DNA of 63,875 nucleotides, filler included, from Porpidia crustulata (GCA_964255105.1; 19 parts of 19 records of this genome joined end to end with filler, not necessarily neighbours in it); one strand, 5' to 3'; counted from the first letter of the whole stretch, positions 2,484 to 57,693 are shown. Notes: generated by a model not told the origin, from the letters alone. Translations and numbers: made by a program.

Positions 2484-2493
2484 AAAAGAAAAA
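2484..2493 (-). terminator. Pol III oligo(T) terminator of tRNA-Leu
   Basis: Minus strand reads TTTTTCTTTT starting 8 nt after the discriminator base (2501). Confidence 0.75.
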
Positions 2494-2500
2494 GTTTTGT

Positions 2501-2639
2501 TGACAACTGAGGGATTCGAACTTTATTGCGTTAGTCAAGAACAATTCGATCGTGGGTAGTTGACGTACCCCTCGCTCTTTCGAACAGGTAAGATACAGAA
2601 TTCCTGAAACCTGCGCCATAACCACTCGGCCAAGTTGCC
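2501..2639 (-). tRNA. tRNA-Leu(CAG) with a 12-nt canonical 37/38 intron (2591-2602) and a 48-nt spliceosomal-type intron at 53/54 (2521-2568)
   Basis: Minus strand: GGCAACT TG GCC GAGTGGTTAT GGC G CAGGT TT CAG G [AATTCTGTATCT] T ACCTG TTCGAAAGAGC GAGGG [48 nt] TTCGAAT CCCTC AGTTGTC A. Acceptor, D, anticodon and T stems all pair; long variable arm, G37 and A73 fit Leu; mature length 79 nt. Confidence 0.92.
2521..2568 (-). other. Spliceosomal-type (GT-AG) intron inside the tRNA-Leu T arm
   Basis: GTACGT CAACTACCCACGATCGAATTGTTCTT GACTAAC GCAATAAAG: fungal consensus 5' splice site, branch site RCTAAC and 3' AAG; exact removal gives GAGGG-TTCGAAT-CCCTC. Confidence 0.85.
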
Positions 2640-3329
2640 TTTCGACCAAATGGCCCTTAGCTAAAATATATTGTTTTAAACTGAGTAAATGAGTTGCACG
2701 GGTTGTCCAACTCTCTCCTGCATCTCACTCGTTTTCGACATTACCATCTTTCCAAAGCGGTATTTTCAGTGCAAGTGCAAGAGAGAGTACCAAAATTCAC
2801 AATTGCGCGAAATCGTTTCCTAGGCAAACAATTCCGGCTTTGTCACACAGCATCCGACGTATCGCTGTAGACATCGCATTCAAGGATACGGAGGATTCGC
2901 GATTGACTGTAGTATTGTTCAAAGCCGCTGTTGCCGCAGAGAATTGGTCGTATATGACGAGTCGGAACCCATATAACAATCCAACCCTTTCCATGCTACA
3001 AAATTCGCCTCCAGATTGCAGTCACCACCCTTGAGATTCTCGGAAATCTAACCCTTATCCAAGCACCCTTCCTAGCGCACAATCTCGTAGAATCTCCAAC
3101 GCAACCCCTTCGCATCACTACCAAAGCATTAGCATCATATCTCCCCCAACCAACCAACAAACCCGCTCACCTCGCCGCTCAAGCTTAATACAAGCTGAGT
3201 AACCTCTCCGCCTCCCCGCGTCAGAGATCTCAGCATACCCTCCTTGGGACCCAGACCCTCACTGCTCAATAGTCCCCGTCACCCATAAAATCCATCACTT
3301 GCACCCACCGCCTACTCCCCCTTCACTTC

Positions 3330-21266: not shown

Positions 21267-23033
21267 TCATATTGTATACGCTTCCGCTCCTTTCCCAAAT
21301 AGAAGGTGTGGCTTTCTCTCAGCCACATCCAAGATTGTCTGGGCAAAGACCGAGTTTGCCCACGCAAACCAAGGCCCTTCAGGAGGATCAGCGTCTGGGG
21401 TCTAGTAACGGTGAGGTGCACTTACTAGTATAATCCGCGATGCGCTCGACATTGATACTCTCATGCACAAGACCAAGTCTGCTTGAATCCCGTACCGCTT
21501 CCAGGGCATCACTAATTTCATTATCATTGCTGCTCGTCATTGCTTGCACTAGCCTGCTCATGGGCCATGCAAATTGCACCCCAATATGAGGCCCCCCAAT
21601 GCCAGAAAAGCCCTTGCCCTTCAGAAAGTATGGGTTCCCGGACTTCTCTAGGATCATCTTTCGGGTATTTTGATATATCTTGTTTTCCACGTCAACAAAA
21701 CCGAGTAGGGGAAGCCCGAGCAACGACGGAGAATTGGCATCATCCATGATTACAGAAGATCCATAACCATCAATTTCGAAGGCAAACACGTCGCCGTATC
21801 TCTTATGGTGTACTACGCCGTGATCCCAGATGCCTTTCTTGATGCCTTCAGACCACCTGAGTAGGGTTTCAGCGAGGTTTGCTTTGCCGGCCATTTTCAC
21901 CAGATTTGCAGTCCGTTGTAGCTCCACTGACATCATCGCATTCGAGGGAATAAGGAAACCGAAGATAGTTGCATCATCGCTTGGTCGGAACGCACTTCGA
22001 ATGAGGCCTGTACCGTCGGCAAGAGGATTACCAATTCCTCCGAGGTTCAGAGTTTCTGTCCCCACAACAGTTTTGCGCCGGAAAATATATTCGTTCCTTT
22101 CATATGCTCCTGTAGTGGAGTTGAAAGTTGGTCGAGATTGCTGATCTAGGACCGCCAAGACGGTGTCTAGAGCGGTGTACCATCTGGGTGATAGGAAATC
22201 TCTTGAGCCTGTGTTTTCATGAAATTGGTTCCCCAATGCCAGGAAATGAGCTAGCGAATCAAGTTCCCACTTGCATTCAAATACTCTGGACTGTTCATAG
22301 ACTGGATGCACTGTGTCGTCCTGTCCGTTGGCTACGGCTGAGAGACGGCTTGGCGGAGGTGGCTGGAAGGCGTTGCAATACGGAGACTCGATTACGTATT
22401 CAGCTTGCGTGTTGATGGCACCAAGAAGAAGGCTTTCTAACTTCTTGTCCTTCTTTGCCAGCGGCTGGTATTGCTTCAACTGGTTCGTTGAATCCCTCAA
22501 CCACTCTGCATTGATGTCGCCCGTTACAATAAAACTTTGAAGACCTTCCCAGTGTCCTTCATTGTGCGAGAGCTGGAAATACTTCTTGCTTTGTCTCTTC
22601 TTGCCTCCATCGTCATGCCATCTAATAGTGGTATCGAGGGTATTTGGGAAAGCATTCTCGAAAATTCGAGCGAGATCCTTGTCTTTCATGCGTGATGTAA
22701 CATCTTTAATAACCTGTTCTACAAGAGGAGACGAGAATGTTCGGCAATGTGGAGATGGTCGTTGAGACGGCAAGTTCAGAGGTCCGTGGCTCAAAGGCCG
22801 GCTGGAGCATTGATCAGCCTCACGCAGTCGGACCCAATGCGCAGGGTTTTTTAAACGTACTGTGCAACCGTTGAAAAGAGAAGATAGTCTGGACAAGCCT
22901 GCTTGTATCTGTCTGGATCAATACCAGACCTCAGAGTATCTTGATTTAATGGTTTGGCTACTCCTGCAGCTTCGCCGAGATTGTGGAACAAGCTGCTTGT
23001 AAGCAGACGCAGAACTGCGAATAGCAGCAACAT
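21267..23033 (-). CDS. Glycoside hydrolase family 125 (exo-alpha-1,6-mannosidase, Mug157-like)
   Basis: FENAFPNTLDTT, TGDINAEWLRDS, FECKWELDSL, SAFRPSDDA, MDDANSPSLL and GGPH..FAWPMS motifs; last exon RPWFAWANSVFA after intron 21377-21425; start codon uncertain. Confidence 0.9.
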
Positions 23034-30923: not shown

Positions 30924-31572
30924 ATGGCGATTCTACCACGATACTCGTATGTCTAAATATCTACATCCAATGTAGCCTTGTAGGAGTCACGCATCCGCTA
31001 ATACATGCCCGTAACAGATGCTACAACAGTAGCTACAATAGCAACGACTACTGTTATAGCTCTTGGGATTCCTATGGCCGTTACATAGTTATTGCTGCAG
31101 TCATCGCTGGAGGTTTCTTCATCTTCTTCATGTTCGCGTAAGTCATCCAGGACTGTCTTGTTCTGTACACAAGGACTAACCAAGCCGCAGTTGTGTTACC
31201 GCTCGTAGACGTCGTCAATCTGGCATGCAGCCATACCGTGGTACTGGTTGGGCCGCCGGGAGGACACCGCCTGGCCACGCACCTGCACAATACACTGGCG
31301 CCCAACCGTATTACGCTGGCAACAACAATCCGCAATACAACGCTGCTGCTGCGCCCGGTGTCAATGGTGCGCCTCCTGTATATTCTCCGGCTCCGAATCA
31401 AACATACTACGGAAACAACCAAGCCGAACATGGGTATTTTGGTGGTCAGCAGCAGTCTGGAATCGAGCTGCAACAGCCGCAAAGCGTATACCAGCCGCAG
31501 AGAGGTGGCGACCCAGTCTACAGCCCTCCAAGCGGTCCGCCACCAGGAAAGGGTGATGGCATCATCAGGTAG
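30924..31572 (+). CDS. Chitin synthesis regulation / Congo red resistance (RCR-type) small membrane protein
   Basis: Three exons: SSWDSYGRYIV-TM-ARRRRQSGMQPYRGTGW followed by a P/Q/Y-rich tail with PPVY and YSPPSGPPP. Confidence 0.75.
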
Positions 31573-38297: not shown

Positions 38298-40611
38298 ATG
38301 GCGGAAGAGAAGATACACAAGCAGGAATACTTAATTCGTGGTCTGGCCACCAGATCAGTGACTTTATACCCTGCGCGAGCTCATGTTATTCGAGACATCG
38401 ACGAAGTCGCCCTCAAGGTAAAATCCAGTTCTTCTCAGACCATAGATGAATATGTACTGATTGAAGCTTGACAGCCCGGCGCAAATGAAATCACAATTTA
38501 TGGCCTCACTCCGACTGCCGACGAGAGCTCTATCAAGGTTGACGGCAAAGGATCAGCTACCATTACTGATATGACCGTTGATCTCGTTACGAACCGGGAA
38601 ATCTTTGAGGACGCCTATCCATCTGATTCGGAAGATTCAGATGATTCGGATGCCGATACCAGCGAATCGGATACAGAGCCAGAAGGTATAGCGATCTTGA
38701 GCAAGAAGAGAAAAGAGCTTGAAAATGCGCTCAAAGAATCACGGGCAGAACAGAATACCGGAGCGGGTCAGTTGACAATGCTCGAGAATTATGCGCGTAG
38801 CTTGTCTACTTCTCGGCCAGACAATCTCAGAGATTGCATGAGCGCCTACGGCATCGAACGCAAAAAGGCTTTTGATGTCTACAGTGCTGGGGGAAACAAC
38901 GCTGTGGAAATAATGCAAGAATTTGAGAAGCTCGCCAAGCAAGAGAACAAGATACACGCCAATGTGATGAAGGAAAAAGCAAAGTTCCTGAAAGCAAAAG
39001 TCAAGGAGAAGAACAAGAAAGAACGAGTGAGAAAGGAAAAGATGGAGGCAAAGAGGCGCCTTCAAGCAGAGCGAATCCAATTCTGGCCGAAGAAAGTGTA
39101 CCGGGTCGTTTTGAGCCTCGATACCAACTCCGACTTGACGCCTGGATCTTCTCGTCGAGGATCTATCGACAGCGTGGTCAAACCTGCTCTTTCACCCACT
39201 CCAATGACTTTAGATGCTTCAACTTCGGAACAAGGCTCGGCTTCTTGCTTTGTCTCTCTGTCGATCTCTTACATCACCTACTCAGCTTCCTGGTCTCCTC
39301 GGTACGATCTCAGCCTAAACACAACTACGAGGTCCGGTTTGATCACCTATCGTGCGGAGTTCTACAATGCGACCTCGGAGACCTGGCGTGATGCAAAGGT
39401 CATCCTTTCCACATCTCAGACCTCATTCCAAGGACTTGGTGAGCCCATTCCAAGCATGCAACCGTGGTATATCCGGCTAGAGAAGGTTTGGGGTAATAAC
39501 AATAGCTTCGTCAAAAACGATATGTCTCAGGGTTTGTACAGTCGCAGTGAAGAAGAATCCAAGCACAAAGCCCGTGATCAGTTTGCCGGCAACCCCAGCC
39601 AGAACCGCGCCGAGCTATTCGGGCTGAATGGTCACGATCGGGCAAAGTTGTATCCAGCATCAGGCCAGTCGCAGTCGGATTATCAGGTGCAACTGATGTT
39701 GCTCGAGAAACAAAACAAGAAACGCCTGTTGATGGCACGTGAGGAGCAGTTGCAGGCCGCACCCAATGTGGCTATGAAGGCTCCACAATCAAGGTTATTC
39801 GCGCAGCAGCCGCAGCAGCAGCAGCAGCTTCAACAGCAGCTGTCCTGGGCACAGAATCTCAGCGCTGGCGGTGGTCTTTTTGGATCCTCGACTGGAGGGG
39901 CAGGCAATTCAGTGCTCTTGAACGCCTCTAATCAAGCTCGAGCTCAGTCATCTAGTGCACTTGTCAACAACGCCAATACCCAAATCGAAGGCGAGATCGA
40001 CTTCTCCGCCGACGGAGAAGACGCACCTACCCTCACCGTCCCCGACCCCACTCTCGCTTTCCAAGAGTCCACCTGGGAAGAATCCGGCCTCACGGCCACC
40101 TACGACGTCCCCGGCACGCGGACGATCCCGCCCTCCCCAACCACCCGCCGGCACAAGATCGCCTCCATCGCCCTCAAGGACATCCAGCTCTCCTACGTCA
40201 TCGTCCCCAAACTCCGCAGCGCCGCCTTCCTCAAAGCCCGCCTCCGCAACACCTCCTCCACCACGCTCCTCCGCGGCGCCGCCGGCCTCACCCTCGACGG
40301 CACCTTCCTCGGCAACACGACCCTGCCGCGCTGCAGCGCCAACGACGCCTTCAGCCTCAGCCTCGGCGTCGACCCGGCCGTCACCGTCACCTACGCCGCC
40401 CCGACGGTCCGCCGCAGCGAATCCGGCATCTTCGCCAAGGAAGGGTCCTGCGTCTACACCCGCGCCGTCACCGTCGTCAACACTAAACCCCATACGCCCA
40501 TCGAGGGCCTCGTGCTCGACCAGGTTCCCGTCAGCGAGGACGAGAGGCTCAAGGTCGAGATTTTGCAACCCAAGGGACTGATGCGCGAGGAGGGGTCCGG
40601 GAGCGTGAGGG
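38298..40611 (+). CDS. DUF4140/DUF4139 (F37C4.5/MuiA-like) protein, 3'-truncated
   Basis: SVTLYPARAHVIR, SSIKVDG, ASWSPRYDL, TWRDAKVILST, SLSLGVDPAV and DQVPVSEDERLKV motifs; intron 38418-38474. Confidence 0.88.
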
Positions 40612-41067: not shown

Positions 41068-41086
41068 TATATATATATTATAAAAA
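41068..41086 (+). promoter_or_regulatory. Upstream TATA element of tRNA-Gly
   Basis: TATATATATATTATAAAAA, with TATAAAAA starting 30 nt upstream of the mature tRNA 5' end. Confidence 0.6.
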
Positions 41087-41108
41087 GAAGACATTCTACC
41101 ATGTAGTA

Positions 41109-41237
41109 GCGTTAGTGGGTAAGTCACAATGTCTACATTACCACAATGTCTTCGCTAACAGCCACAAAGTTTAGTGGTAAAATTCGTCGTTGCCATACTG
41201 TATCGACGAGCCGGGGGTTCGATTCCCTCCTAACGCA
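41109..41237 (+). tRNA. tRNA-Gly(GCC) with a 51-nt spliceosomal-type intron at 10/11 (41119-41169) and a 7-nt canonical 37/38 intron (41196-41202)
   Basis: GCGTTAG TG G [51 nt] TTT AGTGGTA AAAT T CGTCG TT GCC A [TACTGTA] T CGACG AGCC GGGGG TTCGATT CCCTC CTAACGC A; perfect acceptor and anticodon stems; 71-nt mature fungal tRNA-Gly. Confidence 0.94.
41119..41169 (+). other. Spliceosomal-type (GT-AG) intron inside the tRNA-Gly D stem / A box
   Basis: GTAAGT CACAATGTCTACATTACCACAATGTCTTC GCTAAC AGCCACAAAG: perfect 5' splice site, branch site and 3' AAG; exact removal restores TGGTTTAGTGG. Confidence 0.88.
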
Positions 41238-41249
41238 CAACGTTCAATA

Positions 41250-41286
41250 TTTTTCCTTTTTTTATTTTTTTGTTTTTTTGTTTTTT
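41250..41286 (+). terminator. Pol III oligo(T) terminator of tRNA-Gly
   Basis: Five T5-T7 runs beginning 13 nt after the discriminator base. Confidence 0.85.
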
Positions 41287-42497
41287 AGAATACTCGAACG
41301 ACTACCTTCCTACCTTCCTACTTAAGTTATTGAGCCTTCATACCTAGTTGGATTATAATCTACGTCATCTACTTTAGAGCGCCACTACTGGTTTGATGCA
41401 ATTGTGACTTGTTTGCTTTATGTTCCTCTTACGCAGGTTGCAAACCGCGGCGTTCTACATGTGTTCCTATCATTGATCTACTTGTTTTACTGAGGCGAGT
41501 CAGTGACGAGATGGGTCAACAGCTTTCGGTTTGGAGACTGATGTAGATAAGGTGAGGGTGCGAACGAGTATGGTGAAGATTGATAGACTGAAATACATCT
41601 AGGATACCTGGGTCTCTGGAGTTCCACCAGCTATCACAACGCCACCCTTCACACTTCACACTTCAGGCAGTAAAGACAGAATGCCATGAATATGGGATCG
41701 GGGCGCCTCAGCTACGGAAAACTTTTCTTTCCTGTTCCATGCTCGAGTTGGCTTTTTCACATCTTGGAGACATTGCTTCACAACATTTACTGTATAATTG
41801 ATTCCGTTAAGGACACCATTAAGTTCCCCAAGGAATATACGAACCCGAGAAAGAATGGCTGCCTTACAGCGTTTTCTTTCACGTTTTCCTTATCCTTTGC
41901 TTTCGCTGCTATATTACTGGTGCTTCTTGGCTTCTTCACAACTATTCTATCGGATTTATTCATTCTCCTCGCAATTTTGTCATTGGAGTTAGGCATCAAT
42001 ACTCGATGCAACGTGATGAAGGGCGCTATATTCCCGATGAGGACATCTATGGAGCCGTATCCGAACGTCTTGCATGCAAAATCCAATTTGAGAGGGCAAT
42101 GAATTTGGTTTTTGGACCTTCGCGTTGCACCAACAAGTCGATGGCTGCGTTCTGTTGGCTATGCCTGAAGCCTTCATCGAATATTGCTTTCGTAGCATTC
42201 ATCGTGCGCGGTCATTAACTAATTTTCAATACTATGAATCTCAATTTGTATCGTTCGTTCCTTGATAATGTCACCAAGATCTTGGATACATAAGGGCTAG
42301 CTATGCCCACTGGCTTCTTTTCTCAGCAGGAGGTAGAATTGAGAGCGTACAACAAAACCAAGCAAATCCATTCTTACTAAGCTAACAGAATCATATTTGA
42401 GCCCACATCTTCTCGAGCATCAAATACTTCGTGATAAAAGGATCTACTTCATACAAACCCATTTTCGGTACGAAATCTCGGCTTCTACGAATCTAGT

Positions 42498-43304
42498 ATG
42501 GGGCCTAGACCCTCTGAGAGATGGATCTGTGACCCTTGCTCAACAGCCAACGAGGCTTTCTCCATCAAGTGCGCATACTGCGATCTTGATTATGATCCAA
42601 GACGCTGTCGGACGGCGGAACCAGTTGGTTTCCGTGGATCTTATGTTCGCCAGTCTTCGCAAGCCTCTGGAGAAAATGAACGATTGGGTCTACTGAACCC
42701 CTCCACTGGAAATGACAATAGCCAAGTGCAGCAAATCCCTCAACAGAATCGACAAACAGAACTTTCAACTAACTCTCCTGTCTATCCTACTGGTCAAGTG
42801 CACCAAAGATCTCAACGGACCATACAACCATTTCTATTGCAGAGGTTCACCTCCCACGATGATCAAGCGTCGGCCTCGCAGCATGATAATCTCAACTTCG
42901 CTCCCTACTCAAATCTGCATGGCAGCTTACATGACCCTTTAGTCCGCCGTCATGATGAAACCTATGACCAGTACATAGAAAGGCGTGCGAGAATACGACT
43001 TGAGTGGCCGGAAGAAGAAAGATTATTGGTGAGGCAGCAAGGAGACTTGAACCTCGTGTTCTATGGAACTCGTACGCCCCGAGTTCCATTTTCCCACCGA
43101 CCAGCGGCGCAGAACTCCCAACCCGACGACGAAGAATCCGGCGACGAAGAATCCACCGACAAAAGCTACGCGCCCTCCAAGGTTTCCCGTGGAAAGCAAA
43201 AACGTACGCGAGATTCGCCCAGCGACGATGGTGGTGACGGGAAGGGTGGCACAGAGAAGGTCACTTGGACGCCAATAAAACAAGCTAGAAAGAGTTACTC
43301 TTAA
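42498..43304 (+). CDS. Hypothetical protein with N-terminal RanBP2-type zinc finger
   Basis: WICDPCSTANEAFSIKCAYC matches W-x-C-x2-C-x3-N-x6-C-x2-C exactly; the remainder is low-complexity. Confidence 0.65.
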   Translation: MGPRPSERWICDPCSTANEAFSIKCAYCDLDYDPRRCRTAEPVGFRGSYVRQSSQASGENERLGLLNPSTGNDNSQVQQIPQQNRQTELSTNSPVYPTGQVHQRSQRTIQPFLLQRFTSHDDQASASQHDNLNFAPYSNLHGSLHDPLVRRHDETYDQYIERRARIRLEWPEEERLLVRQQGDLNLVFYGTRTPRVPFSHRPAAQNSQPDDEESGDEESTDKSYAPSKVSRGKQKRTRDSPSDDGGDGKGGTEKVTWTPIKQARKSYS

Positions 43305-44057
43305 TCAGTATGTACGTGGGGTGAGGAGGGAGCACATGAGCGGAGGAGAGGACGTGGTCGGGGGCAGATCCAAAAGCGTGCTTTTCCGCGGTCGGGGTAG
43401 TAATGGGCGGGGTGTGGTGTTTCGATTTGCCAAGAGTAATGACGGTCATATTTCGGGTGTTAATGTTCAGGATAATGTGGATGATAGACGGTACGATGGA
43501 GATTTCGGTTATATTATTGTTCCAATCAACTTTCACTTCCGATATCTTCCTCGCCGTCGCACCGAAATGCCCCGTCTTCTTCGAGAAGTGAAAGACGGTC
43601 GTGCGGGAGGGTACACCCACAGAAAAGCTTCATCGCGTGAACGTCGCAGCAAAGCAGCATCGCTCCCAACATCGAAACCCCCGCGCGCCCGAAGTCTCCC
43701 ACACATACCGTTCCCCGCGTAATTCCAATCGCAAAAACATCTGCTTTCCCCAAATCTTCTAATAACAGCCTCTTTCCTCATCACGCTCCCCCTCCGACAG
43801 ACATTTATTGCTACAAATCTTTGAGATACGCTGCAAACAGTGCTCGAAGAAGTGGGAATGGCGCTTAAATTCACGGAGTAGAAGGAGGGATGCGGAATGA
43901 GCGGTTGAATGTAGGGAAGAGGCGGGATGGTTGTTGAGGTGCGGGAGGATGGGGAAGNNNNNNNNNNNNNNNNNNNNNNNNNNNNNNNNNNNNNNNNNNN
44001 NTTAATTAATTAANNNNNNNNNNNNNNNNNNNNNNNNNNNNNNNNNNNNNNNNNNNN

Positions 44058-44438: not shown

Positions 44439-45733
44439 ACTTGCTGTTGGTTCTTGATGATTTCATTCTTTGGTTCGTGGTTTTCAGTCTTCGGTTCTTG
44501 AGTTTTTTGCTTTCGTACAAACGGGTCTGAGCACTACAAGTTACTGTTGTGGGAAGCCGTAGAATGGGATGATATCTCTACTTCGTGGCTCTTTACAGTC
44601 CTTTTGTGTGTCAATTCCCTTGTCCATTTCTTTACACATCTGTCGCTAGGTCCTCTGGTTTTCATCAAAGATAAGATCATTGTGTGTGTGTGCATATTTG
44701 CACCAAAATGTTGTTCTTCTTTGTGCCTTTGTAGACTTCTCAACACCAGCCAGTGAAATCGGAATAACCCGGCTATCTGTGAAGACTTTGCGATATGACA
44801 TATCTCATAATGCCGTGCAGTCTACCAGGACACAGTGCGTCGAACTTGACAAGTAGAATTTCCGAGTTGTAATAACTCGTCGGTCATCGCTTTCAGCGGT
44901 CTCGATCCTCTCCGGCGTCTCGCAATGGTCACATCAGGGTCAGCCATTCTCGTGAAGATAGGGCTCTGTGCCTTCTAGTCTAGCGCCTTGCCTATCCTGC
45001 TTCTGATTAATTCTCAACAATCATAATACTTTGACTGCATTAATTTTGCAGTAGAATTGGGTAGTTTCTCAACATATAACAATCGTCGATATTTCTTTGT
45101 TTTCTAAAAGACCATTGTCACGCAGTTCGAGCATTCAGTCCCTTATCGAAATGCTTGACACCAAACCATGGTCATCTCAACGTCCGCCTAGCTATCGATG
45201 ATGGAGGATGCGACGGAGAGCCGTATTCCTCGTCTCCTATTTCTCACGACTCTCCAACTCGCCTTCCCGGCAGGTAGCATGTTTTGACACCCTTTCCAAG
45301 ACCACAAATATGTCAACTTATCACGGTCCTAATTGGCTTTGAAACTTCAATGTCTATGGTTCCTTATACTAAATTCATTGAGATGTTAGTGATTGATGGG
45401 GCCACAGCCGGTTTGCTGCAGGTTCATGTAGTAGCCCGGCTTCAACATTGTCTGAGTCGCCGCCAGACTTTTCATAGCGCAGAGTAGCGTTGGAGGGACT
45501 TTGGCATGGGAGTAGCAGAGATGTCCGCTTGGCTCCAGTCTTTTGTAGCGACGAATGAGGGTGCAATGCCAACATAGCTAACCAAACTTCTGAATGGTGA
45601 ACCTAGGGTAGGGCTTCTCGGCTAGATTGAGTCTAGTGTGAATGTTATCGCCGCAAACGCGACGATTTGATGGATCTCAAACGGATAACCTAGACGGTAT
45701 TAAATACACTACATCCAAAAGAAAGCCTCCATC

Positions 45734-46926
45734 ATGGATTTTGCCTCTTTGATGTCCACCGAAATATCCAAATCCCGTAAAAAACCCCCTCCAGACCCCT
45801 CGACAGAATCCACAAAAAAGTACCTCAAGCAAGCCGATATCGAAGCCCAACGCCAACAAGCATACCTTGACGAGCAAGCCGCGATCCAACGCGATCGGGA
45901 GGCTAAGCTGTTCAAGAAGCGTAAATTTGAAGAAGAGGAAGCCACGCGGAATCAAGAGCGAGATGAGAAACGGCGACGTTTAGCAGAGGAATCTCGTATT
46001 AGAAGAGAGGAGGAGGAGAGAAGGAAAGATAAAGCGAGAAGGAAGAGATTAGGGCTTCCAAAGCTACCAATTGAGGGAGCAGGTGATGCGGATGGAGCTC
46101 CAGTACCGGATAACGAGCAGGCCATCACCGAGGACGAACTACTGACCAAATTACGAGCGCTGAACGAACCGGCCATTCTATTCAGCGAAAGTCACAAACA
46201 ACGCCTCCGCCGCTATCGTCAACTAACAACCCCGTCCTCCCAATCCCTTCAAACAACCGGTCCCATTCCCACAACCCTCGTCTTGCTCCCCGAATCCGAG
46301 ATGAAAGTTCCCTTCACCCTGCCACAAGACCCAGACGTGCGAGCCTTCCTCTTCCGACAATTAGCATCCTATTTCACCATGGTGCTCACTGAATGGACAA
46401 TAGCTCTCAACCAACGAAATGAAGATGTAAAACAGAGTTTCCAAGGTAAAGCGGCGCTGAACGCCATGGTGCAGTCACGGGAGAACATGCGCCCCCTTTT
46501 CAAGAAATTCGAAAAGGGGGAGCTGGAAGATGGGATTCTGGAGCCTGTGGTAGAGATTGTACGAGCAGCGCAGGAGCGGCGGTATGTGGATGCCAACGAC
46601 GGATATCTACGATTAAGTATCGGGAAAGCGTGAGTCTCCATCCTGCACACCAACACCTCCTATCATTCCATCATCCTACACAAACCCCTTTCCCAGGACA
46701 CATCGCTAACGTAGAGACCACCTCCTTCAGGGCATGGCCAATCGGCGTGACAATGGTGGGTATCCACGAACGCTCCGCGCGGGAAAAACTCCACGAAAGC
46801 GACAAGGGGCAAGCGCACATCATGAGCGACGAGGTGACAAGGAAATTTTTACAAAGCATCAAGCGATGTCTGAGTTTTGCGCAGACCAGGTGGCCGCCGG
46901 ATGATCTGATGCAATTGATGGGGTAG
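45734..46926 (+). CDS. PRP18: Pre-mRNA splicing factor Prp18
   Basis: PRP4-like motif KLRALNEPAILFSESHKQRLRR and Prp18 domain [32 protein letters not shown] across intron 46630-46730. Confidence 0.95.
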
Positions 46927-53236: not shown

Positions 53237-54055
53237 GATGACGGCGAATCGTTGGGGGGAGTGGACGGATTAGGCCACCAATGGGTTGAGAGGTGTCCCT
53301 TTGGAGTTTGGAGGGACAGACAAACTGCGAGCTTTCGTGGCTGTGTCTGTGCCTCTCGAGGGTGTCGAGTCCCGATCCAGTACCTTTTTTTTTTTGGTGT
53401 GGGCGCAGGTCGGACGAGAGAAATGCTCTAGGGCGCTGTTCCTGTCCTTGTTGGCGTCGGCACGCTGCAGGTGTGGTGGGGCAACGATCTGGCGACAAGA
53501 AAGTTTCACACACACGAGCACACAGACCTTGTTAAGGACATGCTCGTTGCGTTGAAAGAGAATCAACGATTTTGACAGTAGATGTAGATATCGCGATGAT
53601 TTTCAATCAGGGAGAGATGAGTGTACTACGTATATTATTACTCCTTGCTACCCCGTACCGTTCTCCCAAATTACCTTGCTGCCATCGCCCATGGTAGTGG
53701 ACCGGCAGCGGTGATTTCTGCTTCTCCTCCTGTCAGCCACGGCGTCCGTTAGCTCCGTCCATTTATCCTCTAAGCCGCCAACTCCATCTATTTCCCACAT
53801 ATTCGACCAATCACATCCCGTCTCTCTGATTCCTTTTCATCCCTTCATTATTATCATGTATGTATGTATTATTGTTCTCAGTGTTATTCACTCCCCCCTT
53901 CTCCCTCTCAGCCTCTCCAGTCTCGACTCGATCGAAAGGCCTGGCCAGCCTCGACNNNNNNNNNNNNNNNNNNNNNNNNNNNNNNNNNNNNNNNNNNNNT
54001 TAATTAATTAANNNNNNNNNNNNNNNNNNNNNNNNNNNNNNNNNNNNNNNNNNNN

Positions 54056-57000
54056 GAGGCGCATCGGGTGGTTGAAGTTGTAGGCGGTGCGGACGGTGCG
54101 AGAGTCGAGGGGACCGGCGTGGGGGAGGATGGCGTAGCGGATGTGGTGGCGGCCTGGAACGAAAGGATGTTAGTGAAATTTGGTTTAAAGTGGAGAACAA
54201 AGAAAATTTCTCCAAGGTTCCGGCTTACCCATATCGGCATGAGCGTCTGGAGCTTTGGGCGCTCTTAGAAGAGACAAGCGCATCATGTTGCCGCACGTCG
54301 CGAAGCCGTACTTGCTATCGTTCATTATCGAGACCCCGTAGCCGTTCTCTGATAGATCGGCCCATTTATGGCAACAAACTTCGAACTTCGCCATGTCCCA
54401 GCTGGTGTTGTAGTGAGTAGGTCTCCGAATGATACCGTACTGAGTCTCGTAGGAGGCTTCGGTATTGACAATATCCACGGGGAATTCGACCTTGAGGAAT
54501 TTCATGTTCTCTCGCCATTCAATCTCGCTGGCCATTTCGACGTACGATGGCTGGCCCTCGATGCTCGCTGCTAGGCTGATGGTGGTCCTGACCCAGCTGT
54601 GCTCACTGATCTTGGTCTCCGTGACCAAGCTCACGAGGTGAGGCCCATGCTCTACAATCTCGCTTTCGCCTGGCGGTAGCTCTTGTCGCGATTCAAGGTG
54701 GTAAACCTCTACATCCCAAGCTTGCCAGTAAAGCGGCTTGTCGTCAAAGATGACGAGTTGGTTTGCCTTCCCGCCCTTAGCGATGATCTCGCGCCTTTCA
54801 AGGACATCAAAAAGCGAGGTGATTGCTCCGCCCTCAACTTGGAGCCTGTAGTGCTTATTTGACAGCTGAAAGACGCCTTTCTTGACCTCTTTGATGGACG
54901 CCGACGAGTTGACACTCTTCGATGGTCCCGAAAGTAACTCCACGGCGGCAATACCCGTGTTTCCTCTCACCAAAGCAAACTCTGAGGCTTTAGACTTCGA
55001 AGCTCCGGGAACTTTCATTATCTCCGCACGAGGCCAGGGAGAAGTATTGATAGCGGTCGGGGTACACCCATTCGCCCCGTGCCTTGAAAACCCAAGAGTG
55101 CACAAGGCTTCTTTCATGACGTCCTCGCCAGTCTTGAAGACTTTAGCGTAGAGCTCATCCGAATCATCATAGCACATTTCGATGCAGCTTCCGGGAAGAC
55201 AATCATGAAATTGACACAGTAAAATGTTTTCCCACATATCGTCGATATCCTTCTTAGGATACCTATAAGACTCATCCTTCATTGAGGCCAAGGTAGCAAG
55301 GTACTCAACATCATGCATCATGATTTCCGTCTTTCTATTGTTCCATTTGTTGTTGGCTTGTGTAGTGTAGGTGCCGCGATGAAGCTCGAAATAGAGCTCC
55401 CCATACCAGGTGACAAATTCGGTGCCATTCTCTGCTTTCAACTCCAGCCGATCGAAGAAGTCTTCAACCGAGTTACCCATTTTAACTCGAGGTAGTAACC
55501 CAACTTTGTCACTTATTCCTCGGCACCTTCGGAGTTTCTCTAGGTGCTCCCACGTTGGCCCTCCTCCACCGTCGCCTTTACCGAACATGAGTAACGAGGT
55601 TTTGTCTTGATCCATGGACTTATGTTGAGTTATGCTGCGCTTTACGTCACCAAAGTTCGCATCAGCGGTGTATGTTTCTGAGGGCGCCATATGACATATG
55701 ACTTGGCTGCCATCGAGAGACACCCATCGGAAGGTAGTGTGAGGAAAGTTGTTGATATTGTTCCAGCTGAGCTTTTGAGTGAAGAATCGACTCATCCCAG
55801 CAAGACGGCACAACTGCGGAAGCTGGCTCGAGTACCCAAAGGTATCTGGTAGCCAGAAAGTCCTGCAACGTTCGCCGAAGTGACTCTCAAAGAATCGTTG
55901 ACCGTACAGGAATTGACGGACGAGTGATTCTCCACTAGGCATATTTGTGTCATGCTCGACCCAGCTACCGCCAATGGGCTGGAAGGTACCTTTCTTAACT
56001 TTGGACTTGACGCGGTCGTATAAGGGCGGGTAAAGCTGTTCAAGCCATTTGAATTGCTGAGCTTGCGAGCATGCAAAACGATGCTCTGGGTAGCGCTCCA
56101 TAAGATTGCATTGATTAGCCCAAGACCGGGCAACTTTCCGCTTTGTTTCTGCCCACGGCCACAACCAACAGGTATCAATGTGACAATTTCCGACAGCAAA
56201 AACGATAGTTTCTTCACCCGAGTCGTAGACTTTAGACGAATCGACGTTACTGCCAATATACTTGCGCGCGATCTTTCGACCCTCCACGATGGATTGTTGG
56301 CTTCCATGACCTGCAATGAAAGTATTCATAACAGCATTACCGACTTGAAGAGCTTCATGCGACTCCCAAGAGTCTCCGGGAAATTCTCTTGCTGCGTCTG
56401 TATTGGAATTAGCTACTGCACAGCACGAACTTTATGCTTCCTACCTCCAATTTGCCAGAAGTCAATGTACAGCGCTCTGGCCTCTTGGTTGATGGCAAGG
56501 ATATCTGCCAAGTATAATTGAAAGTATACGTCTGGATGTGGTGGCTGAATTATATCCCCTTCCGCATTACCAAACATGCGATTGCAGGCCATTTCGATAT
56601 AAAATGTGTGGAATTCACCGTCTCGGAAAGACTTCGGAATGATCCATTCTCTGCGCTCTCCACCTCCAGTAAGGCCTTGAAGCGGTTCACCATCTTCACT
56701 CCATACGAGTCCTTCATTGTTCGCATCCCAATGAAACTCGAGCAGCTCGAATTCCTTCATGTGCGACGGCACCTTTAGTTGAATTTTGAACCAGTGCGTT
56801 GACCAACTTGGCCCGAACGATTCGCCCACATTGGTTTCCTTAAAGTCTTTCGATATTGCCTCCTTGAAGGTGGGCCGTGCAAGATCTGGAGGGGAATAGA
56901 CCGAGAGCTTTACGTAGTCCTCCCCAGAGGCTCGTCCGTGATAGAACTTCCTATATTTCCCAATTAGTATATATCTGAGGTCCTAGAACCTAGTCACTAA

Positions 57001-57177
57001 TTTATGCATTCTGTGATTCTCCACTTACCCGCGTAAGTTTTCCGGCTCATACTGTCCACCACCAGTGAATTGACCGAGTCGGTCTCTGTAGATGTTGTTG
57101 ATTCGTTGCCCTACAGGACCAGCCGAGAGCTTCGGAAGGGAGATCGACGAGACTCTGATCTGGGTCTCGCCACCCAT
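54056..57177 (-). CDS. AMS1: Vacuolar alpha-mannosidase, GH38, 3'-truncated
   Basis: [58 protein letters not shown] and [11 protein letters not shown] motifs; at least three introns. Confidence 0.95.
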
Positions 57178-57693
57178 ATTGATGTTATGACGATTTTCCA
57201 CGGGGGCATTCAAACCCGTTGTATTGAGGAGTGGTGATAAAATACTACTATTATAAGGCAACGATTAAGATCTAAGNNNNNNNNNNNNNNNNNNNNNNNN
57301 NNNNNNNNNNNNNNNNNNNNTTAATTAATTAANNNNNNNNNNNNNNNNNNNNNNNNNNNNNNNNNNNNNNNNNNNNGGAGAGATGGATGTCGGGTGATGG
57401 TGTTGCGTTGGAGGGTGTAGGGGTTCGTCGGTCGAGGCGTCATGTGTTGAGAGTTTAAAAGGATAGCGTAGCTCAAAAAAAGCGTCGGCCGCGTGCGACT
57501 TTTTTCAGATGCTCGCGCTCGATTCCGGAGGAGCGAGGGAGATGGAACGCTGCAACAAATATGATTTGGTCTAATCCGTCCACCCGTAACCCTAACCCAT
57601 GATTTCATTGCACCGTTCCTTACTCGTATGTACGTCGCGCCCCCACCGCAAATCTCCCAACTCCCAATAATGGCAAAAGATAGAAAAAAACAC

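Follow-up and report, generated by a model that had tools for sequence, protein, structure and literature searches.

Two tRNA genes of Porpidia crustulata carry inserts with a full set of spliceosomal intron signals at noncanonical sites, besides canonical introns

INTRODUCTION

Canonical introns of eukaryotic tRNA genes are 6 to 133 nt long (PMC4090602). Noncanonical tRNA introns are known among eukaryotes from nucleomorphs and from Cyanidioschyzon merolae, where the processing enzyme is guided by a bulge-helix-bulge (BHB) motif (PMC4090602, PMC3728597). The tRNA genes of C. merolae, of cryptophyte and chlorarachniophyte nucleomorphs, and of archaea resemble the genes reported here in that they may be interrupted more than once, also within the D and T arms, and escape standard tRNA finders (PMC4090602, PMC3728597). 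Their introns, however, are short (3 to 24 nt in nucleomorphs), defined by a BHB where they are understood, and cut by the tRNA endonuclease, whereas the inserts considered here have spliceosomal signals and no BHB.

Spliceosomal introns occur in the genes of U6 snRNA, which is made by RNA polymerase (Pol) III, as well as in U1, U2, and U5 snRNA and rRNA genes; tRNA is not named in the parts of that source considered here (PMC5855946). The U6 introns of Schizosaccharomyces pombe and other fungi (Tani and Ohshima 1989, 1991, cited in PMC5855946) are similar to the present case, since there, too, a GT-AG intron with a branch sequence interrupts a short, structured, noncoding Pol III RNA. The U6 intron is removed by the spliceosome (PMC5855946), as predicted for the inserts described here. 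The hosts differ. U6 is itself a component of the spliceosome, so that its intron can be traced to reverse splicing at the active site, to which tRNA is not comparably close; tRNA genes also possess an intron system of their own, which is present in the genes described here.

Lichen rDNA also carries spliceosomal introns, and yeast accurately excised a 57-bp intron of Cladonia grayi from transcripts made by Pol I (PMC8527467). These introns of lichen ascomycetes (Bhattacharya et al. 2000, cited in PMC8527467 and PMC5855946) share with the inserts reported here the broad lineage, the size class, and a host that is not transcribed by Pol II. Removal by the yeast spliceosome was demonstrated experimentally for the rDNA introns. 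The host is a Pol I rRNA in one case and a Pol III tRNA in the other, and the parts of these sources considered here mention no tRNA case. Introns of the U3 snoRNA gene, present in most Pezizomycotina analyzed (PMC5832005), are likewise spliceosomal, reside in a small noncoding RNA gene, and come from the same subphylum; they differ from the present case in that the host is a snoRNA and its gene is subject to one splicing system only.

Reviews devoted to tRNA introns and their splicing set the two systems apart and, in the parts considered here, describe no spliceosomal tRNA intron (PMC10275265, PMC12530127); the string “spliceosom” has no occurrences in the text of PMC4090602 considered here. 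An initial annotation of the DNA studied here, which proposed a spliceosomal-type intron in a tRNA-Gly gene, knew of no described tRNA case, and a full-text literature search, with most subscription journals outside it, also returned no report of a spliceosomal intron in a tRNA gene.

RESULTS

A tRNA-Gly(GCC) gene interrupted at two positions

The window analyzed is the whole 63,875-nt stretch of P. crustulata DNA, made of parts of the assembly joined end to end with filler. At 41109 to 41237 on the plus strand, it contains a tRNA-Gly(GCC) gene with the following features.

41079..41087, plus strand: TATA-like element TATAAAAAG, about 30 nt 5′ of the tRNA-Gly 5′ end
41109..41118, plus strand: exon 1, nt 1 to 10 (5′ acceptor strand, U8, G9, G10), from the ARAGORN cloverleaf after in silico insert removal
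41119..41169, plus strand: 51-nt spliceosomal-type intron between G10 and U11, with a complete signal set and no BHB
41170..41195, plus strand: exon 2, nt 11 to 37 (A-box core, D arm, anticodon GCC), from ARAGORN and Rfam
41196..41202 (equally 41197 to 41203), plus strand: 7-nt insert at the canonical 37/38 position, reported by ARAGORN -i as a 7-nt intron at 37-38
41203..41237, plus strand: exon 3, nt 38 to 73 (T arm with GGTTCGATTCC, 3′ acceptor strand, A73), from ARAGORN and Rfam
41250..41254, plus strand: first of several T runs 3′ of the gene, Pol III terminator-like, from sequence reading

The 51-nt insert begins with the 5′ site GTAAGT (41119 to 41124), contains the branch sequence GCTAAC at 41154 to 41159 followed by 10 nt (presumed branch A at 41158, 11 nt from the end), and ends with AAG. 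All of these elements had been pointed out in the initial annotation and are present in the sequence. The position of the cuts is ambiguous by 1 nt, since the insert is preceded by a G and also ends with a G. It had also been claimed that removal of GT...AG yields a complete tRNA-Gly. ARAGORN indeed calls tRNA-Gly(gcc) when 41119 to 41169 are excised in silico, but the 7-nt insert at 37/38, which had been overlooked, remains in this product, and a clean 72-nt cloverleaf results only when both the 51-nt and the 7-nt inserts are removed. The 7-nt insert is predicted to be of the kind that is removed by the tRNA splicing endonuclease; two kinds of splicing would therefore be needed to produce this tRNA. 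Within exon 3, GGTTCGATTCC of the T arm is located at 41216.

The flanks of the gene agree with the upstream TATA and the T-run terminator noted earlier: TATAAAAAG is found at −30, and the T runs begin 13 nt past 41237. TATAAAA has four plus-strand copies in the 63,875-nt window, one of which is the upstream element of tRNA-Gly. The intron contains a 17-nt tandem repeat (41125 to 41141 and 41142 to 41158; 13 of 17 positions identical, including an exact 10-mer), which suggests internal duplication as a possible route of its growth. A search for introner-like copies revealed no further copy of the intron in the 64-kb window, where the longest match to it was 10 nt.

A second split gene specifies tRNA-Leu(CAG)

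A tRNA-Leu(CAG) gene at 2639 to 2501 on the minus strand is the second split gene in the window; it was located independently of the locus flagged in the initial annotation. Its features are as follows.

2662..2670, minus strand: TATA-like element TATATTTTA, −31 to −23
2603..2639, minus strand: exon 1, nt 1 to 37, from the Rfam tRNA model and from ARAGORN after insert removal
2591..2602, minus strand: 12-nt insert at the canonical 37/38 position, ARAGORN i(38,12)
2569..2590, minus strand: exon 2, nt 38 to G53 (3′ anticodon stem, long variable arm, 5′ T stem), from ARAGORN and Rfam
2521..2568, minus strand: 48-nt spliceosomal-type intron between G53 and T54, with a complete signal set and no BHB
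2501..2520, minus strand: exon 3 (T loop TTCGAAT, 3′ T stem, 3′ acceptor strand, A73), from ARAGORN and Rfam
2489..2493, minus strand: T5 run 8 nt 3′ of the gene, Pol III terminator-like, from sequence reading

The 48-nt intron has its 5′ site, GTACGT, at 2568 and a CTAAC branch sequence with the presumed branch A at 2531, 10 nt from the end; like the tRNA-Gly intron, it ends with AAG. Each of the two genes is thus interrupted twice, by a 37/38 insert (7 nt in tRNA-Gly and 12 nt in tRNA-Leu) and by a GT-AG insert of about 50 nt, of the U2 type by its signals, elsewhere. All stems are intact in both tRNAs, G-U wobbles being the only departures, and each gene is flanked by a TATA-like element near −30 and a run of five or more T residues 8 to 13 nt downstream.

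Standard finders miss both genes

ARAGORN run with default settings on the intact window reported no tRNA, neither tRNA-Gly nor tRNA-Leu, and the outcome was the same with the anticodon-loop intron option. Rfam at gathering scores gave no match in the whole window. The prediction that standard finders would miss the tRNA-Gly gene thus holds for default ARAGORN and for the Rfam gathering score. In a permissive Rfam search, intact tRNA-Gly was matched only at 41168 to 41229 (model positions 9 to 63) with 28.2 bits, compared to the gathering score of 29; the acceptor stem is dropped from this match because of the 51-nt insert. Intact tRNA-Leu was matched by the tRNA model over its full length (1 to 71) with 26.5 bits and insertions of 15 and 55 nt. 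The permissive search (E ≤ 5) revealed just two tRNA-like loci in the 64-kb window, these tRNA-Gly and tRNA-Leu genes, and both of them carry a spliceosomal-type insert.

Low-stringency ARAGORN produced 16 calls, two of which overlap the split genes with wrong parses: 2501 to 2639 was read as SeC(tca) with a 63-nt intron and 41109 to 41238 as Gly(gcc) with a 50-nt anticodon-loop intron. Automatic pipelines could therefore mislabel the two genes besides missing them. The other low-stringency calls were taken as spurious; one of them, 43398 to 43540, was inspected by eye.

After in silico excision of 2521 to 2568, ARAGORN called tRNA-Leu(cag) and placed a 12-nt intron at position 38. The excision procedure was then applied to every loose candidate intron, defined as a 30- to 150-nt GT..AG segment with any NTRAY near its end, and ARAGORN was run on each product. 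A junction-spanning tRNA was obtained from 2 of the 3,612 excisions, those of 41119 to 41169 and 2521 to 2568. We also scored a composite signal consisting of a GTRNGT start, CTRAY 8 to 20 nt from the end, and a terminal AG. Among 127,650 51-mers of both strands, 17 have the GTRNGT start and AG end, and a single one remains when CTRAY is added; it is the tRNA-Gly insert, and the reversed-sequence control contained none. The composite signal is likewise present in 1 of 127,656 48-mers of the window, the tRNA-Leu insert.

The inserts lack features of endonuclease-cut and self-splicing introns

The 51-nt insert is located at 10/11 in the D stem and the 48-nt insert at 53/54, the junction of the T stem and T loop, and the 37/38 position holds only the 7- and 12-nt inserts. 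The initial annotation had named a BHB-like fold at the tRNA-Gly junctions as an observation that would speak against spliceosomal removal. We scored BHB motifs at both borders of each insert and found none, with no more than three of four pairs in the central helix. The best BHB totals were 6 of 10 pairs for tRNA-Gly and 4 of 10 for tRNA-Leu, values equaled by 34 and 83%, respectively, of 20,000 random site pairs. In the minimum free energy folds of the precursors, the acceptor and anticodon arms are kept (in tRNA-Gly, the T arm as well), and the insert folds into hairpins of its own with no BHB. Given the absence of a BHB at either insert, we rejected a BHB/TSEN reading of the ~50-nt inserts. 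Self-splicing introns of group I or II were ruled out by size, as the catalytic core needs hundreds of nucleotides and the inserts have 48 to 51; Rfam at E ≤ 5 found no intron family in the whole window.

Comparison with mRNA introns of the window

Candidate mRNA introns were defined by the strict motif together with the requirement that excision join two open frames, each 25 codons or longer. This rule yielded 16 candidates compared to 5 in the reversed-sequence control, and because of the latter number about a third of the 16 may be false. Two introns were verified in other ways: 38418 to 38474 (+; 57 nt), in a DUF4139 gene, by homologue alignment and 46630 to 46730 (+; 101 nt) by Pfam continuity, the Prp18 profile being left at 88 and resumed at 90. 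A looser ORF-bridging finder was discarded as noisy (115 matches versus 87 in the reversed control), and the strict composite motif applied to the window without the ORF test showed no enrichment (26 versus 28 in the reversed control). The tRNA inserts were accordingly compared with the 16 ORF-bridging candidates and the two verified introns.

The 16 candidates are 47 to 102 nt long with the branch A 9 to 17 nt from the end. The tRNA inserts, with lengths of 51 and 48 nt and branch distances of 11 and 10 nt, fall within these ranges, as had been asserted for the tRNA-Gly insert. Both tRNA introns end with AAG, compared to 4 of the 16 mRNA candidates. No T run in either tRNA intron exceeds 2 nt, which is uninformative because 14 of the 16 mRNA candidates have no run longer than 3.

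Intron placement and kinship

Both tRNA introns end with AAAG followed by TT, and the target context of both is GG/TT. The tRNA-Gly intron lies directly 5′ of TTTAGTGG and the tRNA-Leu intron directly 5′ of TTCGAATCC, which we take, reading the cores by eye against the consensus, to be the core of box A and the core of box B, respectively. The boxes stay near consensus in DNA because the terminal AG of the intron replaces R9-G10 in tRNA-Gly and R52-G53 in tRNA-Leu. We infer that these kept promoter boxes may be the reason why the GG/TT insertion sites are tolerated.

Alignment of the two introns gave 34 identical positions in 52 columns and a score of 11. This score was reached by none of 120 mRNA-intron pairs (maximum of 6) and none of 37 length-matched pairs (maximum of 5); 0.75% of 2,000 shuffles scored 11 or higher. 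The likeness hints at either common descent or common constraints.

Searches for relatives and gene neighborhood

A pattern for tRNA-Gly with an insert at 10/11 had no matches in metagenome contigs. A wider, permissive pattern matched at least 121 metagenome loci, nearly all of them ordinary bacterial-type tRNA-Gly with U8-A9, and no spliceosomal-type insert was present among the matches listed. For 11 of the 121 listed loci, acceptor pairing was absent at the expected place (with up to one mismatch allowed); these are truncated, bear a 37/38 intron, or are degenerate. A degenerate example, at 290 to 372 (−) of metagenome contig L095, resembles tRNA-Gly(GCC) but has a mutated T loop and a 5′ acceptor strand that has lost its pairing; we regard it as a likely pseudogene or tRNA-derived repeat with no bearing on the split genes. 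A scan of genome contigs for interrupted tRNA-Gly gave one chance match, a Saccharibacteria tRNA-Gly(TCC), and the scan of viral contigs gave none.

The protein of the neighboring DUF4139/DUF4140 gene has its best named homologues in lichen-forming Lecanoromycetes (45 to 53% identity), and unnamed proteins match it with 60 to 62% identity; we therefore place the source among the Pezizomycotina, close to that class. The first intron of this gene (38418 to 38474) is in phase 0, has a length that is a multiple of three, and uses a nonconsensus GTAAAA donor. A gene for a Prp18 splicing factor, with PRP4-like and Prp18 domains, is located at 45704 to 46923 (+), 4.5 kb from tRNA-Gly. An ORF of 288 codons at 42438 to 43304 (+), 3′ of tRNA-Gly, has a sole, 100% identical match, an entry without a stated source like those of the window's own proteins, among proteins of near length in a collection of 5.8 billion proteins and is either an orphan gene or not a gene. 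Ordinary fungal genes in the window include those for a GH125 alpha-mannosidase at 21391 to 22800 (−), an Ams1-like GH38 alpha-mannosidase with several exons at 54011 to 57264 (−), and an RCR (chitin synthesis regulation) protein at 31192 to 31569 (+).

DISCUSSION

Two tRNA genes of the window contain inserts with the full set of spliceosomal signals at noncanonical sites and, in addition, canonical introns. We consider it probable, at roughly 0.65, that both are working Pol III genes whose expression needs the spliceosome as well as the tRNA endonuclease, the ~50-nt inserts being spliced from Pol III transcripts. This reading is suggested by the presence of such inserts in both tRNA-like loci of the window, by the flawless exons and flanks, by the kept promoter boxes, and by the precedents of U6 and lichen rDNA. 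Two features of tRNA-Gly count against it. Exon 1 comprises only 10 nt plus a short leader and lies within the acceptor helix, and so is an awkward 5′ exon for the spliceosome. Box A is located ~60 nt from the presumed start, which is far for TFIIIC-directed initiation. For both genes, the AAG end of the intron, shared with just 4 of the 16 mRNA candidates, also speaks against it.

If the genes work in this way, Pol III would start about 25 to 30 nt 3′ of the TATA-like element and stop at the T run. With the intron immediately ahead of the box A or box B core, the Pol III promoters of the genes would survive. The spliceosome would recognize GTAAGT or GTACGT, the CTAAC branch, and AG and release the ~50-nt intron as a lariat, and only after this step would the D arm of tRNA-Gly or the T arm of tRNA-Leu be able to form. 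The canonical intron would be taken out by TSEN and tRNA ligase, and the ends would be trimmed by RNase P and RNase Z.

The main rival explanation is that mRNA-type introns landed in the two genes, by reverse splicing plus recombination or through an intron-spreading element, and inactivated them, tRNA-Gly(GCC) and tRNA-Leu(CAG) being supplied by intact copies elsewhere. Genes for tRNAs are usually multicopy, so the loss of one copy would be tolerable, and both intact loci score just under the Rfam gathering threshold. We nevertheless regard inactivation as unlikely. Were split genes a rare dead minority, they would hardly account for both of the tRNA-like loci in the window, and both have kept perfect stems, invariant bases, the canonical intron, the TATA-like element at −30, and the terminator. 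Moreover, the introns differ from each other at 18 of 52 columns and the repeat units within the tRNA-Gly intron differ at 4 of 17 positions, while the exons show no decay; if the introns are related, we infer that time has passed without exon decay. The TATA-like element at −30 could also serve Pol II, and the genes might be functional and spliceosome-processed but transcribed by that enzyme, alone or within a longer transcript, with RNase P and RNase Z releasing the tRNA. Both genes are co-oriented with neighboring ORFs, and the recruitment of the spliceosome normally goes together with Pol II transcription (PMC8527467). Yet the strong T runs that immediately follow the two genes and the near-consensus state of their A and B boxes are Pol III features, and spliceosomal removal has non-Pol II precedents in U6 (PMC5855946) and rRNA (PMC8527467), which makes a Pol II precursor a decidedly doubtful alternative.

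The ~50-nt inserts could also be cut by a protein endonuclease, either a TSEN relaxed as in Cyanidioschyzon and nucleomorphs or another enzyme, with the splice motifs being coincidental. Noncanonical introns of the D and T arms do exist in nucleomorphs and C. merolae, but they are BHB-guided (PMC4090602, PMC3728597), and neither insert has a BHB. A 5′ site, branch, and AG coinciding with the tRNA-restoring borders, at 1 of about 127,650 k-mers and in two independent cases, exclude coincidence, and endonuclease cleavage is accordingly very improbable. A further alternative is an assembly or sequencing artifact. The stretch is contained in a single public run (0.88 of sampled words), which may be the source of the assembly itself; however, two loci 38 kb apart have the same architecture with different sequences, and we give an artifact almost no credence.

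Taking both loci as working Pol III genes, we tentatively put forward a wider possibility, that a large share of the nuclear tRNA genes in this lineage may carry a tRNA-specific family of spliceosomal introns, inserted at GG/TT 5′ of box A or box B cores so that Pol III promoters are kept, and spreading among tRNA genes. In such genomes, the usual annotation tools would arrive at too low a number of tRNA genes.

Reviews treat spliceosomal and tRNA introns as unrelated and as having separate substrates (PMC12530127, PMC10275265); a tRNA that needs both systems would break this separation. If the spliceosomal reading is true, tRNA is added to the few non-mRNA hosts in which spliceosomal introns are known and becomes the second Pol III-made host after U6. 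The two genes would then offer a natural system for studying spliceosome recruitment without Pol II, splicing with a 10-nt helical 5′ exon, and intron gain in structured RNAs. Should the wider possibility hold as well, tRNAs would follow snRNA and rRNA as a third class of ectopic host, the tRNA supply of the lineage would depend on both the spliceosome and TSEN, and the introns may act as a brake on growth like that proposed for lichen rDNA introns.
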